Assembly (NCBI GenBank): GCA_963848135.1
Contig: CAWKCK010000004.1
Coordinates: forward strand, 186,001 to 250,000
Length of the DNA stretch: 64,000 bases
Source: an uncultured delta proteobacterium
GTDB lineage: Bacteria; Desulfobacterota; Desulfobacteria; Desulfobacterales; SG8-13
Direction of reading: 5' to 3'
Part shown: piece after piece, positions 7,500-41,991 of the stretch
Layout of the letters: each line of letters opens with the position of its first letter
Numbering within the stretch: position 1 is the first letter of the stretch
Position numbers and translations under genes: made by a program
Notes under the pieces: model-generated
What the model saw: the letters and a program-made list of their open reading frames with translations, nothing else
Databases searched by the model: none
Told to the model about the DNA's origin: nothing

Positions 7500-7950
7500 T
7501 CAACCCAAAGCTACAACTAAGCGCCGTAGGCGGAGCGGTTTTCATTGAGCGCCTTCTCCCGCTCGATGAAAAAATAATAACCCTCCGCGTTCTCCGCGCC
7601 TCGAGCGAAGCGGGTGGTGAAATCTCGTTAATCTTTCAGCTTTGAACTTTGAGCTCATATCCGCCTTGCCCCCTTTTTTTCCGGGCTCAACGGGCCCAAC
7701 CGGCTAAATTTATCCTGTTAAATTCACGATAGTGAAAAGCGAAGCTTATTTAACGGGACAGGCTTAACCGGCCCCCTTTGTAGGGCCAAATAGGAAACTT
7801 ATAATTTAATGGGCGTTATATATTGAAATAACTAAAGAATATACTGCCACGAGTAGTAAAAAGAAAAGTAATTATCGCCTTGAAAAAAAGATAACCTCCT
7901 AATAGCATAAAAGTCAGCAAAACTTAAACATCTGCCAAAAGGAGGTTATC

Positions 7951-9235
7951 GTGAAGCATGACAACGTTACCAAGTACGTCGAGTTCTGTCAATTCCGACA
8001 AGAGATCCGAGGATCGACAGAGCATGTCATCGTCGGCATCGATGTGGCAAAGGATCGCCACCACGCTTTTTTCGGTACCGCTATGGGCCGAACACTGCTC
8101 AAAAGACTGCTCTTTGACAACACCGCAGCAGGCTTCGCCAAGTTGCTGGAGCGCGTCGACCAGCTTAAGGCCCGCTATGGTCTGAGCAAGGCCGCCTTTG
8201 CATTGGAGCCGACGGGTAACTACCATAAACCACTGGCCCACTGGCTTTTGGAGCAAGGACAACTGCTGGTGCTGGTCTCCAACCATGCCATTGCCGAGAA
8301 CCGCCAGACATTGGACGGCCGGTGGGATAAGAACGACACCAAAGACAGTGCCAATGTGGCTGACTTGGTCTCCCAGGGCAAGTGCCAGTTCTTTGAAAAA
8401 CCGGCTGCGGACCTGTTGGAATTGCGCACGTTGCTGTCGCTGCGCAAGCGACTCAAGAAGCAAGAGCATGCGATTCGCATGCAGATCCGCAATGGGTTGG
8501 TGGCCAGGCACTTTCCGGAACTGGACCGGCACTGGGGAAGCTGTCTGACCGAGAACTTGGCAATCGTGCGCTGGTGTCTGGATCCGCGCACAATAGCGGC
8601 TATGGCCTTTTAACGATTTTCTGCGCCTGGTTACCACCCGTGATCGTGGTCTGCGGCAGCTAAAACGGTTGCGGACAATCCATGAGTTGGCCGCAAGTTC
8701 GATCGGCTGCCCGGTGAATGAAGCCACAGTATTTGAGGCCCAAACACTGGTGGAGCGCTTCTATGATCTGCGAGAGCGTATCGAACAAACCGAGGCGCAA
8801 ATAGAGTCGATTTGCCGGCGTTTTGCCGCATACCGGTGGTTGCGGACGATACCCGGATTTGGCCCTTACGTCTGCTCGCAGGTGTTGGCAAAAATCGGAG
8901 ACCCCCACCGATTCAAGGGGCGCAAACAACTGATCCGGCTGGCTGGTTTTGATCTGAACGCCAAGCGGAGCGGCAAACGCAGCCGGACGGCTGTGCCGGT
9001 GATCTCCAAACGCGGCAATAGTGATCTGAGATATGCGCTGTATCAGGCGGCGCTGATCGCTTCAATTCAAGACACCGGCTTCCGCGCACTGTACACCGGC
9101 TATTTGAAAGGCCGTGAAAAGGAGCGGGGCATCCGAACCAAAATGCGGGTCAAGCTGGCTGCCAAGATGCTGGTCATCGCTTGGACGATAATGAGAACTG
9201 AAACTGGTTTTAATCCGAGCATGCTCGGAGTCTGA
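7951..9235 (+). mobile_element. IS110-family recombinase gene, frameshifted at ~8610, followed by a long 3' non-coding end
   Basis: GIDVAK, LEPTG, KNDTKDS (DEDD domain); IPGFG...SG...ISKRGN..LR (Tnp20 domain). Confidence 0.9.
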
Positions 9236-32337: not shown

Positions 32338-32664
32338 CTAAAAATATTCATGAAGGTGTATTTTCACTTTCCCTGAATCCTTATCGGAAAGCCTCCCGAT
32401 TTTTTTTAGAAGCAATCGGTTATCCAGGGTAAAGAGTTTGAGCCTGACCTGGCACGGTAAATTTAATCCAGCCGCAGTATATTCCTGGATTTCAGAATCA
32501 CCGGGCCACGGACGGTGACCTCTGGTTGTTATCATTGCAAGGACGGTATGCCCGCTCCCGTTGAATGTTTTATTGCTGAGCACAAGGGCTGGACGCCTTT
32601 TGGCATCCGGTTTATCTGTAAACGGAAAGGGAACGGTCACGACATCCCATTGGTTACAAATCAT
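32338..32664 (-). CDS. PemK/MazF-like toxin
   Basis: DVVTVPFPFTD...KRRPALVLS. Confidence 0.9.
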   Translation of the reverse strand: MICNQWDVVTVPFPFTDKPDAKRRPALVLSNKTFNGSGHTVLAMITTRGHRPWPGDSEIQEYTAAGLNLPCQVRLKLFTLDNRLLLKKIGRLSDKDSGKVKIHLHEYF

Positions 32665-32878
32665 TGAAAGCCTCTTCATCGTCCGGACTGCTCCACTCTT
32701 CGAGTGTTTCCGAAACAGCTGAATGGAAGGCAGAATCAAACGGTGTGATGCGGCTGAGCTTAATGGATTGGCCCTGTATTTCATAAGCGATAAGATCACC
32801 CGGTTGTATGCCCAGGGCCTTTCTGATCTCCAAAGGGATGGTGACCTGGCCTTTGGCCGAAAGTTTGCTGACATGCAT
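32654..32878 (-). CDS. AbrB/MazE antitoxin
   Basis: SKLSAKGQVTIPLEIRKALGI.PGD. Confidence 0.9.
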   Translation of the reverse strand: MHVSKLSAKGQVTIPLEIRKALGIQPGDLIAYEIQGQSIKLSRITPFDSAFHSAVSETLEEWSSPDDEEAFNDL

Positions 32879-33207
32879 CGTTGATTCTCCTTGAGTGAGG
32901 AACGCTGAAAAAAAATATCAAACGTAAAGAATTGTGTCAAGTTGGAATTCTTTACCAAGGATGAAAGTCAAATTAAAGGATTAAGGGACTGAGGGATTGA
33001 AAATAAAGGGTTCAAGGATTCAAGGGGACGAGGAAAAAAAGGCTGAAAGCAAGGGAGAGCTGAAATCCTGATAGACCTCAAAGGTCAAAGCTGAAAGCAG
33101 ATCTCACACCCGCTCCCGGTGGTCGCTTGAGGCACAGGGGGCACAGAGGGTTTTATGAGTGGTTATGTTTTCCGCTGAGACGCCGGAAAACATAAAACTG
33201 CACGCCC

Positions 33208-33630
33208 TTAAAGAGATTTCAGAAACTGTTTTGGGGTTAGAATACTTATGTTGTTGTAGTTCCCGAGTGAGAGCAGGTGACGGTCGCCGGATATTATGAA
33301 TTGGGCATTTGCGGTAGCAGCGCATGCAAAGAACTTATCATCTGCAGGGTCTTCCGCTACAATTTTTGGAACATTTTGATCGATGTCGACCGAGCTGAAA
33401 TAGAGGAGGATTTCAACATGCAGGAGATAGTCGATGTCCTCTACCGCTAGTTTGAATTTCGGGTATGCCAGGACGCGGATATATTCATTTATGATATCTG
33501 CGGAGGCAAAGGGCTGAATGCGCCTTTTCTGCCACAAAGATACAATTTCGCCCGGGACTCCGGAAAACAGCAAACCGGACACGACGACATTGGTGTCGAT
33601 GACGACCCGAGCTACTTTTTTCTTGCCCAC
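33208..33630 (-). CDS. PIN-domain toxin
   Basis: VVIDTNVVVSG...DPADDKF...IISGDRHLL. Confidence 0.9.
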   Translation of the reverse strand: MGKKKVARVVIDTNVVVSGLLFSGVPGEIVSLWQKRRIQPFASADIINEYIRVLAYPKFKLAVEDIDYLLHVEILLYFSSVDIDQNVPKIVAEDPADDKFFACAATANAQFIISGDRHLLSLGNYNNISILTPKQFLKSL

Positions 33631-33839
33631 TTGACGGCTTCTTTCACACTGTTGGCATTCAACCCCATCGCCTTCAGCTTGGATCGGATCTGGCCCAGAT
33701 CGGTGCCATATACCTTTAACGGCTTCAGCAAAACAACACCCTCATTGAGTTCCACATCGAAATATTCAACATCCGGTAATTGTTCGATGATTTTTTTGGG
33801 GATAGTGATCTGATTTTTTGCGGTAATTTTGGCAAGCAT
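33612..33839 (-). CDS. AbrB/MazE antitoxin
   Basis: MLAKITAKNQITIPK. Confidence 0.85.
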   Translation of the reverse strand: MLAKITAKNQITIPKKIIEQLPDVEYFDVELNEGVVLLKPLKVYGTDLGQIRSKLKAMGLNANSVKEAVKWARKK

Positions 33840-34109
33840 TTCCGATTTCCTTACTTTCTGGTTTTCTTTATGCCTTACTTTATTGGTTTTTGCGAGTGTT
33901 GTCAATTGGGGGATTCAGTAATTAAGGAATAGAGAAGCTCAAGGCTGAAAGGTCAATGCTGAAAGCAGATCTCACACCCGCTCCCGGTGGTCGCTCGAGC
34001 TTGCTATATTCCAGTAAGCCTTGAGCATGAACAAAAAAGGCTATACTCATTTTGATGCCAGTTACATGCAAGTTGGTTGGTAATCTGGGATCAAAAGAGG
34101 AGCATAGCC

Positions 34110-35363
34110 ATGAATACTAAATCGCAAAAAGTTAAAAGGGTCAATAGGCAAACAATGATCGTTAGTCTGGATATCGGTAAAGGGTCTCATTTTGGATATT
34201 TCCGTGCCCCCAATGGGAAAGAAGAAAAACCTTTTGAAGTTACCAATTGCCGGTACGGTTTTGACCAATTTTGGAAGAAGCTGTGTCGGTTTAAAAAAGC
34301 CCATCGCTTGAGTCAGGTTCTGGTTGGCTTTGAGTCCACAGGGCCTTACGCCGAGCCGCTGCTGCACTTTTTGAGGCAGAAGCCGGTGCAGCTGGTGCAA
34401 ATCAACCCGATGCACAGTAAGCGTGTGAAGGAACTTACCGGTAATTCTCCGAACAAGACCGATCGTAAAGACCCGCGAGTCATTGCCGATGTGATGATGC
34501 TCGGTCATTCTTTGACGGTGGTGGTTCCGGAAGGAGCGGCGGCCGAGCTGCGGCGGCTGACCCAGGCCAGAGAGCGCGCCATCAAAGAACGCACGGCCAT
34601 ACTCAATCAGTTGCAGCATCTTGTGTTTGTCGTTTTCCCAGAGTTTTTGAAGGTGATCAAAACCGTTTCTTGTAAAACCGGCTTGTATCTGATCAGGCAT
34701 TGCCCTGCGCCGGGCGCCGTGTTGACTCTGGGCCTGGAGCAGTTGAGCCGGGACATGAGGCGTGTGAGCCGTGGCAGGATGGACCATCAACGGGCCAGGC
34801 AGCTGTTTCAGGCGGCAAAATCCTCGGTCGGAGTCACCGAAGGCCGCCAGAGCATTGTCTCGGAGATTGGCTACCTTGTGGATCAGATCGAAAGGATCAA
34901 TGCGTTTGTCGATCACCTGGAAGGCCGCATGAGAAGCTATTTGGAGCAAATCCCATACAGTCCGTATCTTCTTTCGATGCGAGGTATCGGCCTGATCACC
35001 GTTGCCGGCTTGATCGGTGAGGTGGGAGACTTTCGTCAATTTTCCACGCTCCCTGAGATCACCAAACTGGCTGGTCTGGATTTGTTTGAGGTCAGTTCCG
35101 GCAAGCACCGCGGGCGACACCACATTTCCAAACGCGGACGACCGTTGATGCGCAAACTGTTGTATTTTGGCGCCATCAATACCGTTAAGTCCAATGGGAT
35201 TATGCATGTGCCTTACAACCGAATGATTGAGCGTGGAATGCCCAAAATCAAAGCTCTGGTGGCGATTTCGCGCAAACTGCTGGCGGTGATGTTTGCATTG
35301 GCCCGTGATGGCTCGATATATATCGAAGATTACAATACCCATCGTTGTCAACTAGCAGCTTGA
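34110..35363 (+). CDS. IS110-family recombinase (intact)
   Basis: SLDIGK, FESTG, KTDRKD, SSG...ISKRGR; RBS GAGGAG. Confidence 0.95.
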   Translation: MNTKSQKVKRVNRQTMIVSLDIGKGSHFGYFRAPNGKEEKPFEVTNCRYGFDQFWKKLCRFKKAHRLSQVLVGFESTGPYAEPLLHFLRQKPVQLVQINPMHSKRVKELTGNSPNKTDRKDPRVIADVMMLGHSLTVVVPEGAAAELRRLTQARERAIKERTAILNQLQHLVFVVFPEFLKVIKTVSCKTGLYLIRHCPAPGAVLTLGLEQLSRDMRRVSRGRMDHQRARQLFQAAKSSVGVTEGRQSIVSEIGYLVDQIERINAFVDHLEGRMRSYLEQIPYSPYLLSMRGIGLITVAGLIGEVGDFRQFSTLPEITKLAGLDLFEVSSGKHRGRHHISKRGRPLMRKLLYFGAINTVKSNGIMHVPYNRMIERGMPKIKALVAISRKLLAVMFALARDGSIYIEDYNTHRCQLAA

Positions 35364-35364
35364 T

Positions 35365-35520
35365 GTGAAAGCGGGGAGATTTTCATCTGCGCCATTAAGG
35401 CGATTTTTTCGACCTTCAGCTCGAGCATTCAAAACTCCCCGCTGTCACCAATTCCCGATGAAGCAAGATCAGAGCCGTTGGCGGACTCTCAAATACCAGG
35501 GTTGGAAATGGTGACCTCAT
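35365..35520 (+). ncRNA. Putative bridge/seek RNA of the IS110 element
   Basis: Two stem-loops whose loops match the target and the donor junction (see findings). Confidence 0.7.
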
Positions 35521-35889
35521 TATAAGCAAAAACTATTTTAAGTTCTTGACTACAATAAACCAGGCACAGGGGGCACAGAGGGTTTTATGAGTGGTTATGT
35601 TTTCCGCTGAGACGCCGGAAAACATAAAACTGCACGCCCTTCGGGCATTAAGGCGGGTTTTTGAGTAGCCGCCTCTCACAGGGCCGGTTACACTTTTTTC
35701 TCTACGAACTCTGTGTGCTCTGCGAGAGCTGAAAAAAGGTGTTGAGATTGTTAGAAGAAATATTAAATAATTTGATTATTAGAATTGTTTAGGAAAGTTA
35801 TAAGAGCAGAGAAACTTTCATTGCGTTCTCAAATCGGCCGTAGTTGGTGTGTCCTGTTCAGAGGTTCACAATCAAAAGGAGGGTATGTT

Positions 35890-36696
35890 ATGGCGAAACG
35901 CTGTCTTGTTCTCTGTCTGGTCGTTGGCTGGATCGTCGCCGTCCCGGGCTTAGCCGCTGCATATAATGCTACCGGCATTTGGGACTTTTCAGAACACACT
36001 TTCTGGAACTCTTGTGAAGAGCCGAATCCGCCAGCGGAATCGGGGTCATTCATTTTTATGCAAAATGGAAACAGCGCCACCATCATAAAACAAGGTCGAA
36101 CGCTTACTGGATCGGTCAGTGGTTCACTATACACTTTTTATGACACCAAATTTGAAGATGGTGGGACGACTCAGATAACCATATTGATACCTCTTGTTTC
36201 GCCAACCAGTGCTGAGATCACGGTGCAGTGGGAATGGAGCGATGGAGTAGACCCTTGTGCGGGAGGGAATAATGCTACCATCGCCAAACAGACTCAGATT
36301 TCCCCGGTGTATGACATAACAGGCACGTGGGAATATTCAGAATCAGGACATTGGAACAGTTGCGGTGATCCGGTTGAAAGCCCGACCACCGATACGTTGA
36401 CCTTAATCCAGAACGATAATCTTGTATCCGGCACTTCAGCAAGTGGCACTATCTATACAGGCTTTCTCAACGGTTCGACCTACACGGCCGTTAGCACTTA
36501 TCCGGAAGATGGCGGCACCACCTCTGAGGTCAAAACGATAAACATGAGTTCAAAGAGCGCCGGTGGCGGAAGTTGTCAATGGATTTGGAATGACATTTTT
36601 GAATCCTGCGCCGGTGGGTACAATGAGACAATTTCAAAAGTGGTATCGACCGTCAATGTAATGCCGGCGATAAACGCCCTTCTGCTTAACGAGTGA
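35890..36696 (+). CDS. Secreted protein with an internal two-domain duplication
   Basis: RBS AGGAGG, signal peptide, Y.xTG.W..SE...WNSC twice, C-terminal PAINALLL. Confidence 0.75.
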   Translation: MAKRCLVLCLVVGWIVAVPGLAAAYNATGIWDFSEHTFWNSCEEPNPPAESGSFIFMQNGNSATIIKQGRTLTGSVSGSLYTFYDTKFEDGGTTQITILIPLVSPTSAEITVQWEWSDGVDPCAGGNNATIAKQTQISPVYDITGTWEYSESGHWNSCGDPVESPTTDTLTLIQNDNLVSGTSASGTIYTGFLNGSTYTAVSTYPEDGGTTSEVKTINMSSKSAGGGSCQWIWNDIFESCAGGYNETISKVVSTVNVMPAINALLLNE

Positions 36697-40107: not shown

Positions 40108-40665
40108 GGAGTGGGGCATTCAGGAATTAAGGGATTAAGGATTAAGGAATTATAGGAAGACACTCGAACCCTTGCGTCCCTGATCCCTGATAAGAAAACT
40201 ATCTAAATGTTCAAAATTTATCCTGTGAAATTCTCAAAAGATACGAGCGAAGCGGATTTCACCGGGACGATCTCAACGATCAACGTTGGAAGTGCCTGAA
40301 GTTAAAATAGGGGACACGGATTCACGCAGACGGGCGCGGATGGGGAAAGAGCTCGAAGCTCAAGGCAACAGAAGCACGTTGGCGGTTGGAGGGTTGAGGT
40401 CGGGGGCAACCCGTAACACGCAACTCGTAACGCGCAACCCGTAATCTCAAGGGGATAAGGATTTGGAAATAGAGAATTAGGGGATATCTCACACCCGCTC
40501 CCGCTGGTCGCTCGAGCGCGTTGGGGGCGCAGAGATAATTTTTGGCGTTGAACGGGTCATCACCATATAGGTGTCGTCCGTTATCGGAATAGTTCCTCAA
40601 TAGTCTGCTATAGTTCAAGCACTTGTTTCATAAAATTTACGAAGGAAATTTTATTCAGGAAAGGA

Positions 40666-41256: not shown

Positions 41257-41991
41257 TAAAATCGCTCGCGATTTTATATAACGCGGCGGTGCCGCTAAAA
41301 GTAAGGTCAAAGGAAGGGAAGGGAATATTCAGGAATTGAGGGATTAGGGGATTTATCTCACACCCGCTCCCGTTGGTCGCTTGAGTGCGCCGAGGGCGCA
41401 GAGATATATGGGCCACAGACCCACGCAGACAAACACAGACGTTAGATAAATTTTCCTTTGCGCGCATTCACAAAGGAGAAACAGTCAACCCTGCAGGTGA
41501 AAAAACAAAAAAGACGGGTTTTTATCCCGCACAGCGAGTGGCCTGTTTTGGCCGGTCAATTTATCCTGAGCTTTGTCGAAGGAGTCGACCGGGCATAAAA
41601 TCTGTGCTGATCCGTGTGTGTCCGAGGCTGAAGGGTTGGGCCCCAATTACAAACTTAAGAGCTTTGCTTACTCAGCGTGCTCTGTGAGAGACAGGAAGAG
41701 GCTCAAAGGTCAAAGCTGAAAGGTCAAAGATGAAAGATTAATAGTTCAAAGTGCCTAAAGTGAACTAAAGTTTGAAAATAGGGCACAGATTTGCGCAGAT
41801 AGATACAGACAAAAGAAAGTGAGCTCAAAGCTGAAAGGTCAAAGCAATAGAAGCACGTTGGAGGTTAGAGGGTTGAGGTTGGAGGCAACCCGTAACACGC
41901 AACTCGTAACCCGCAACCCGTACTCTCAAAGCTGAAAGAAGAATAAATGATAGCATTCGGATTACACCAGTTGATGGCGATCGGAGGCTGC

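Follow-up and report, generated by a model that had tools for sequence, protein, structure and literature searches.

A predicted two-loop bridge/seek RNA downstream of an IS110-family transposase gene in an uncultured Desulfobacterales bacterium, and the co-variation of its guides with their DNA targets

The described members of the IS110 family closest to the element reported here are the IS1111 seekRNA elements, the Pseudomonas putida element ISPpu9, and IS621, whose bridge RNA and recombinase are reportedly also the subject of work by Hiraizumi and co-workers in 2024. In the IS1111 group, as described by Siddiquee et al. (2024; PMC11187229), the RNA is encoded downstream of the transposase gene (tnp), the RNA segment matching the top strand lies 5' of the one matching the bottom strand, and the transposases have 330-350 amino acids (aa). 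Both the position of the RNA and the order of the guides are reported to be opposite in IS621 and ISEc21 (Durrant et al., 2024, PMC11208160; PMC11187229). Multi-loop donor sites are said to be common in IS1111 (PMC11208160), and promoters formed at the junction of an excised circle have been described for the IS110 family (PMC11208160; PMC11187229). Here we describe an element of this kind at positions 34000-35563 of the window, a 64,000-nucleotide stretch of contig CAWKCK010000004.1 from an uncultured delta proteobacterium (Desulfobacterota; Desulfobacterales; SG8-13). It is an intact, autonomous and recently active element of the IS110 family in the broad sense, and the kind of system to which it belongs is already known. 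The explanation that best accounts for the observations, and in which we have high confidence, is that it is an RNA-guided IS110-family element with a downstream two-loop bridge/seek RNA. Its main parts and its insertion site are as follows:

34000..35563, + strand: insertion sequence (IS) of 1564 bp, present in three genome copies, with its ends set by an empty paralogous site
34110..35363, + strand: transposase (recombinase) gene, 417 aa, with candidate DEDD residues D21, E75, D118 and D121 and an SG motif at S330-G331
35562..35563, + strand: last two bases of the IS (core AG), which alone are common to its right end and the end of the left flank
33955..33999, + strand: left half of the interrupted target repeat, which ends in GCTCGAG, has its core AG at 33998-33999 and aligns to the empty paralogue at 33080-33131
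35564..35648, + strand: right half of the interrupted target repeat, with GCACAGGGGGCACAGAGGG followed by a hairpin with loop CTGAGACGC and then GCCCTTCGGGC
33107..33209, + strand: uninterrupted paralogous target repeat, with the target GCTTGAG-GCACAG (junction after GAG) at 33125-33137

The IS begins with CTTGCT at 34000 and finishes with AAACCAG at 35563, between a left flank that terminates in GCTCGAG and a right flank that opens with GCACAG. These ends are fixed by the empty paralogous site, in which GTCGCTTGAGGCACAG begins at 33122 and the similarity to the flanks of the filled site extends for about 45 nt to the left and about 85 nt to the right. When the empty and filled sites and the three copies are compared, both the left flank and the IS terminate in AG and share nothing beyond it, and the insertion therefore involves a 2-nt core and no other duplication. 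The ends and the core agree with those proposed in the first-pass annotation of this DNA. Site-specific insertion at a core this short, with no terminal inverted repeats and no further duplication of the target, accords with the IS110 family.

The non-coding 3' end of the element carries the predicted RNA gene, which comprises two modules, each with a stem, an internal loop and an inner hairpin:

35370..35514, + strand: predicted bridge/seek RNA gene with two stem-internal loop-hairpin modules, from RNAalifold and pair counts over 75 sequences
35397..35416, + strand: inner hairpin of the target loop, AAGGCGA...TCGACCTT; helix 2, with 8 pairs, 5 of them compensatory, 99% paired
35471..35489, + strand: inner hairpin of the donor loop; helix 5, with 7 pairs, 5 of them compensatory, 99.2% paired

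Taken alone, the 3' non-coding end (35364-35563) folds with a minimum free energy of -55.1 kcal/mol, compared with -43.6 +/- 3.5 kcal/mol for shuffled sequences, none of which folds as well (0/200). Stem 1 is formed by AGCGGGGAG (35370-35378) and CTCCCCGCT (35435-35443), and stem 2 by GTCACCA (35444-35450) and TGGTGAC (35508-35514). Relatives of the transposase were retrieved from 16 genome loci (55-92% identity) and 79 metagenome loci (the best 80 of 122 relatives), and a conserved hairpin anchor is present in 92 of 98 loci. The RNA alignment contains 75 sequences, namely the window and 74 non-identical relatives with the whole 162-nt region; the other two copies in this genome and a degenerate copy (L019) were left out. 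RNAalifold predicts 38 consensus pairs in five helices from this alignment, with changes on both sides in 26 of them. The pair cells are standard in 98.4% of 2840 cases, compared with 91.8% in shuffled alignments (0/500 reach the observed value), and pairing falls to 38-46% when the partners are displaced by 1-3 columns. The pair cells include 180 G-U but only 16 A-C combinations, and a reading of the - strand pairs only 92.6%, indicating that the RNA lies on the same strand as the gene (+). The variable parts of the alignment are the unpaired sides of both internal loops.

A covariance model built for this RNA (R1) scores 35370-35514 at 164.5 bits. Its three matches in this genome are the three IS copies, with no orphan RNA genes, and it finds the RNA in 3 of 20 searched genomes of the family, this one included. 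The model is clade-specific, since it returned nothing better than E 0.2 on the distant plasmid relatives examined (a Peribacillus element with 34.5% identity, and ISBth13-like and ISSfl4-like elements). A Rfam scan of window positions 33000-36500 gave no match at E values up to 1. The two-stem-loop fold that had been proposed from this sequence by itself is upheld by the comparison with shuffled sequences, by the 75-sequence alignment and by the covariance model. A structured non-coding end whose loops match target and donor is a feature of the IS110 family.

Four putative guide segments are found, all of them within the loops; their coordinates and those of the stems hold as first annotated, one guide being longer by a base:

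35386..35393, + strand: 5' guide of the target loop, TCTGCGCC, complementary to the top strand of the core G plus right flank GCGCAGA
35419..35425, + strand: 3' guide of the target loop, GCTCGAG, same sequence as 5 nt of the left flank followed by the core AG, so that it would pair with the bottom strand
35462..35467, + strand: 5' guide of the donor loop, AGCAAG, complementary to the first six IS bases CTTGCT
35493..35499, + strand: putative 3' guide of the donor loop, ATACCAG, whose ACCAG part is identical to the last five IS bases including the core AG

Both target guides follow the DNA that flanks the element across relatives. For the 5' target guide, 71-82% of loci show complementarity between alignment columns 25-32, taken in descending order, and flank positions +1 to +7; the mutual information (MI) reaches 0.99. 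The reverse complement of this guide matches the first seven bases of its own right flank at a mean of 5.72 of 7 positions, compared with 3.46 for others, a value reached in 0/10000 permutations (71 unique pairs from 75, with 55 distinct guide windows). For the 3' target guide, columns 62-67 match flank positions -7 to -3 base for base in 76-96% of loci (MI 0.93-1.37). Here the six bases before the invariant AG were compared with the six before the core, and the mean agreement is 4.5 of 6 variable positions with the own left flank and 1.74 for other guides (0/10000 permutations; 76 unique pairs from 84, 40 distinct guides). A position-by-position map of guide versus flank gives two clean diagonals of opposite sense. 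Chance is excluded by this comparison with relatives.

The first-pass annotation had read the 5' target guide as CTGCGCC (35387-35393) with one mismatch to the right target. That mismatch is real, and TCTGCGCC extends the guide by one base; the mismatch to the window flank GCACAG is absent at the IS copy on contig 5, which is flanked by GCGCAG. The single mismatch is thus a feature of this insertion site and not of the guide.

In the donor loop, the one variable position of the 5' guide (column 112) complements the second base of the IS in 99% of 70 loci; where the guide of a relative is AGCACG or AGCTCG, its IS starts with CGTGCT or CGAGCT, respectively. The ACCAG of the putative 3' guide is conserved both in the RNA and in the right end, and in the CGTGCT clade the identity extends to 8 of 8 bases (TAAACCAG). 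Because the right end is invariant, no co-variation is possible for ACCAG. Three of the four guide assignments made on first pass (both guides of loop 1 and the 5' guide of loop 2) are thus supported by co-variation, and the match of ATACCAG to AAACCAG is a candidate assignment drawn from the conservation of ACCAG.

We considered whether only the first module guides. Under this alternative, the target loop would act as a short seekRNA, the second module would belong to a longer precursor, with a structural or regulatory role, and the IS ends would be recognised by the protein through subterminal repeats instead of RNA pairing. The predominant IS1111 RNA is indeed described as short, 82-96 nt, with a rarer long form (PMC11187229), and the donor 3' guide has just 5 nt here. 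There is also a candidate for an imperfect subterminal inverted repeat. A repeat search of the element itself reported no terminal or subterminal inverted repeats, and the signal is a weaker one, visible only across relatives: TATTSYAGT-AAG versus TATTGTAGTCAAG, about 9-12 bp with one indel and a mean identity of 0.59 in register versus 0.19-0.34 out of register. The compensatory support of module 2 (helices 4 and 5), however, equals that of module 1, and the co-variation of the donor 5' guide with the left end ties the second loop to the DNA as well. We consider guidance by the first module only improbable.

As a second alternative, the 3' structure might act in cis on the transposase mRNA, as a stabiliser, a terminator-like structure or a translational regulator, and the flank matches might result from common descent. 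Such a role would suit a structure that lies directly after the stop codon and is without its own promoter, but here 40 and 55 distinct guide versions track different flanks, one identical in sense and the other complementary, while the stems are constant. Common descent cannot produce such tracking and is contradicted by the permutation and position-map results, which makes this alternative very improbable.

Several observations weigh against an RNA-guided element with a two-loop RNA. The permutation tests ignore the kinship of the loci, so that their zero counts overstate significance; the guide-flank pattern is still plain by eye. The right flank agrees at 4 or fewer of 7 positions in 8 of 71 pairs and the left flank at 3 or fewer of 6 in 7 of 76, and two loci (L015 and L066) lie at sites that do not fit their own guides; the left flank of L007 likewise misfits its guide. 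Each 5' guide, as read from the sequence, pairs with just one of the two core bases, and the ACCAG guide, of just 5 nt, matches a right end that is invariant. A scan of the linear element for sigma-70-like promoters found no site, so that no RNA promoter was seen there, and the only two terminator-like sites in it are both on the - strand, with none for the RNA. Contigs of relatives from four metatranscriptomes cover positions corresponding to 35247-35532, 35424-35527 and 35464-35532; such libraries can contain DNA, the contigs give neither strand nor ends, gaps in their cover carry no meaning, and they are at most a weak hint of transcription.

Locus L066 carries the target guides of L068, but its palindromic site, CCCCCTCTTAAG/ATAAGAGGGGG, fits the guides of L064, L069 and L073. 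This mismatch could reflect guidance in trans by the RNA of a co-resident relative, or recombination between elements. The degenerate copy L019 (CAVRBA010000011.1) has a partial transposase match (residues 283-404, 73%) and mismatched stems; its 5' target guide misfits the flank, yet the site is still in a GCACAGAG-type repeat.

The target is a hairpin-bearing repeat family of about 100 nt. In this genome of 6.03 Mb and 18 contigs, an nhmmer search gave 41 matches to it with E values up to 1e-3; the profile combined the empty site, two additional copies and the three occupied sites after removal of the IS sequence. Three of these 41 matches are the right halves that adjoin the three IS copies, including the one in the window (C4:221562-221648, E 9.8e-14). 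All three copies lie on different contigs at the same position of the same repeat, with unrelated outer flanks, and differ by one base in total. Their junctions are GTTAGAG/IS/GCGCAG, GCTCGAG/IS/GCACAG and GCTCGAG/IS/GCGCGA. That the element is instead a dead relic, copied by duplication of the surrounding repeat, for which the extended flanks shared by two repeat copies of the window (33080-33215 and the filled one) could speak, is hardly tenable in view of the unrelated outer flanks, the intact gene with all catalytic residues, the single base difference in 1564 among the three copies, and the presence of the RNA in just 3 of the 20 genomes.

Exactly this guide pair occurs at five independent sites, namely the three here and two relatives (L020 and L045), all at the same point of such a repeat: GTTAGAG/GCGCAG, GCTCGAG/GCACAG, GCTCGAG/GCGCGA, GCTCGAG/GCGCGG and GCTCGAG/ACGCAG. 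All five are targets that match the guides and none is unrelated. The 41 matches and the shared position of the three IS copies bear out the proposal that a local repeat family is the target. Among all relatives, a right flank of the NCRCVRAR type is present at 25 of 67 unique sites with both flanks, so that much of the clade uses the same kind of repeat in other hosts; other clade members use unrelated targets. A search for an orthologous empty site, made with the left flank in 30 relatives, matched only the repeat part and distant homologues of the PIN gene, and one uninterrupted repeat copy was seen in a genome of the same genus.

The repeat opens with TTCACCGC, and its long form goes on to ...CGCTCGAG / GCGCAGAGGACGCAGAG, with the insertion point in between. 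The stem of its hairpin varies with compensating changes, the loop CTGAGACGCC or CTGAGAGGGC is kept, and the repeat often ends in GCCCTTCGGGC. A GCCC-TTCG-GGGC hairpin often follows the repeat hairpin. Many copies are arranged as convergent pairs, about 280 bp long and conserved in their inner part, that resemble a miniature inverted-repeat transposable element (MITE), for example at C3:269880-270160 and C18:249475-249757; others are single and lie between small genes, as in the window. The genome has 23 matches to PF00589 (tyrosine recombinases), none of them at or beside any of the 41 repeat matches. A genome scan with the 13-mer predicted from the guides gave 1, 12, 154 and 1577 matches at 0, 1, 2 and 3 or fewer mismatches, mostly noise (rough expectation about 130 at no more than two mismatches, for equal base frequencies), and was replaced by the profile search. 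Similar sites had been proposed at about 7597, 40508 and 41377 in the window; all three belong to the family, the last two as weak members:

7520..7622, - strand: uninterrupted repeat copy, nhmmer E 1.7e-18, GCTCGAG/GCGCGG, one mismatch to the guides
40498..40543: weak repeat member, nhmmer E 7.7e-4, with an extra base at the would-be insertion point
41352..41409: weak repeat member, nhmmer E 5.4e-5, with an extra base at the would-be insertion point

Two toxin-antitoxin pairs are encoded on the - strand at 32338-32878 and 33208-33905 (MazE/PemK-MazF, and an unassigned small protein with a PIN_3 toxin). Each pair is bounded by a copy of the target repeat, giving a cassette-like layout.

The transposase contains the domains PF01548 (E 9.6e-29) and PF02371 (E 1.6e-19) in Pfam and matches the NCBIfam model NF033542, 'IS110 family RNA-guided transposase', with 208 bits at a cut-off of 140. 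It aligns distantly with two proteins of solved structure, those of IS621 (E 6e-9) and ISCro4 (E 1.2e-6). Residues D21, E75, D118, D121 and S330-G331, called from the alignment and the sequence, align with IS621 residues, and both the domains and the catalytic residues are those of the IS110 family in the broad sense. Among plasmid transposases, the best full-length alignments are with proteins of about 400 aa at 23-35% identity, and the ISBth13-like and ISSfl4-like genes have 1197 nt; the matches on Escherichia coli, Salmonella and Klebsiella plasmids, with 40% cover, comprise residues 244-409 only.

Three further features may bear on the expression of this gene:

34039..34109, + strand: inverted repeat in the left end, GGCTATACTC (34039-34053) and GAGGAGCATAGCC (34095-34109), 15 nt, 80% complementary
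35546..35551, + strand: TTGACT, putative -35 half of a circle-junction promoter, overlapping the candidate imperfect subterminal inverted repeat
34005..34010, + strand: TATATT, putative -10 half of the same promoter, which only circularisation of the element would assemble

When the ends are joined in silico, TTGACT and TATATT are separated by a 17-nt spacer, and a candidate promoter is reconstituted across the joined ends as in the IS110 family. Of 62 unique relatives, 59 have TTGAC at the corresponding position and 56 have TATATT, with TATAAT in 2 others. Both motifs of the left-end inverted repeat recur in the left ends of relatives, and the predicted structure may be able to sequester the ribosome-binding site of the transposase.

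The core of IS621 is CT, and the AG found here reads CT on the other strand. Judged from its sequence, the element is of the IS1111/seekRNA type in where its RNA lies and in how its guides are ordered, both of which are reversed in IS621 and ISEc21. Its right non-coding end (35364-35563) is 200 nt and its left end (34000-34109) 110 nt, so that the longer non-coding end is the downstream one, and along the RNA the guide for the top strand precedes the one for the bottom strand; the RNA is not in the left end and the bottom-strand guide does not come first, as they would in the IS621-like IS110 group. The IS1111 elements ISEc11, ISPa11, ISKpn4 and ISPst6, as described by Siddiquee et al. (2024; PMC11187229), are also alike in the long non-coding region downstream of tnp, the overlap of the two matches at the insertion point, specific targets that differ between relatives and the circle-junction promoter, which is predicted here; they have subterminal inverted repeats, for which the element has a candidate. 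The element differs from that description in its transposase of 417 aa, outside the 330-350 aa given there for IS1111, and in a candidate subterminal repeat that is short and imperfect, with one indel in about 9-12 bp, compared with 7-17 bp in IS1111.

With IS621, as described by Durrant et al. (2024; PMC11208160; PDB 8wt6), the element shares two internal loops with the target first and the donor second, one guide per strand in each loop, a 2-nt core, a recombinase with DEDD and Ser residues, and a repeated extragenic target. It departs from IS621 in its reversed RNA position and guide order and in a recombinase that is only distantly similar. Its simple pair of internal loops is nearer to IS621 than to the multi-loop donor sites reported for IS1111. 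ISPpu9, with its Ssr9 RNA downstream of tnp, is described as an IS110-family element in repetitive extragenic palindromic (REP) sequences (PMC12288879) and is alike in its residence in a repeated extragenic sequence and in having its RNA gene after that of the transposase; it is reported to have extra orphan RNA copies, whereas model R1 found none in this genome.

We propose that an RNA of about 145 nt, which would be encoded on the same strand as the recombinase gene and downstream of it, directs the DEDD/Ser recombinase. The insertion site would be read by loop 1, with TCTGCGCC addressing the right flank and GCTCGAG the left flank plus core. For the joined ends of an excised circle, loop 2 would do the same, AGCAAG pairing with the left end CTTGCT and ACCAG matching the right end plus core. 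Recombination at the AG core would then insert the circle into the host repeat without duplication. The joining of the ends would assemble the TTGACT-17 nt-TATATT promoter, which could drive the transposase gene and, by read-through, the RNA. The anatomy of the element, its fold, the co-variation of guides and DNA and the site specificity are observed here; production of the RNA, its binding by the recombinase and the circle intermediate are presumed.

The IS110 transposase model matches this genome 22 times, and the open reading frames fall into at least four size classes (about 344, 375, 431 and 435 aa); several different RNA-guided elements therefore coexist here. Another IS110-family transposase gene, of a different type, lies in the window at 8029-9202 (C4:194029-195202), about 400 nt from the repeat copy at 7520-7622. 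It is matched in two pieces (model positions 1-149 and 173-341) and is perhaps frameshifted.

The known mechanism is left unchanged by this finding. The element and about 90 sediment relatives might form an undescribed subgroup, a tentative and rather doubtful reading, which would combine a transposase of about 417 aa, the size given for the IS110 subgroup, with an IS1111-type layout (RNA in the right end, reversed guide order) and an IS621-like two-loop topology. In that case it would be the location of the RNA gene, and not the protein lineage, with which the guide order goes. The clade has re-written its target guides naturally dozens of times, and it appears to follow one hairpin-bearing, MITE-like repeat family (TTCACCGC...AG/RCRCAGAG) through genomes of Desulfobacterota and Nitrospirota. 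The hosts are anaerobic sediment bacteria, in which such elements have drawn little attention. Within one clade and on a constant scaffold, there are thus 40 to 55 distinct target guides and 3 donor versions, a natural series of re-programmed guides that could serve as data on mismatch tolerance and guide length for a bridge RNA encoded in the right end. In this genome, RNA guidance would explain the restriction of the element to one repeat family.

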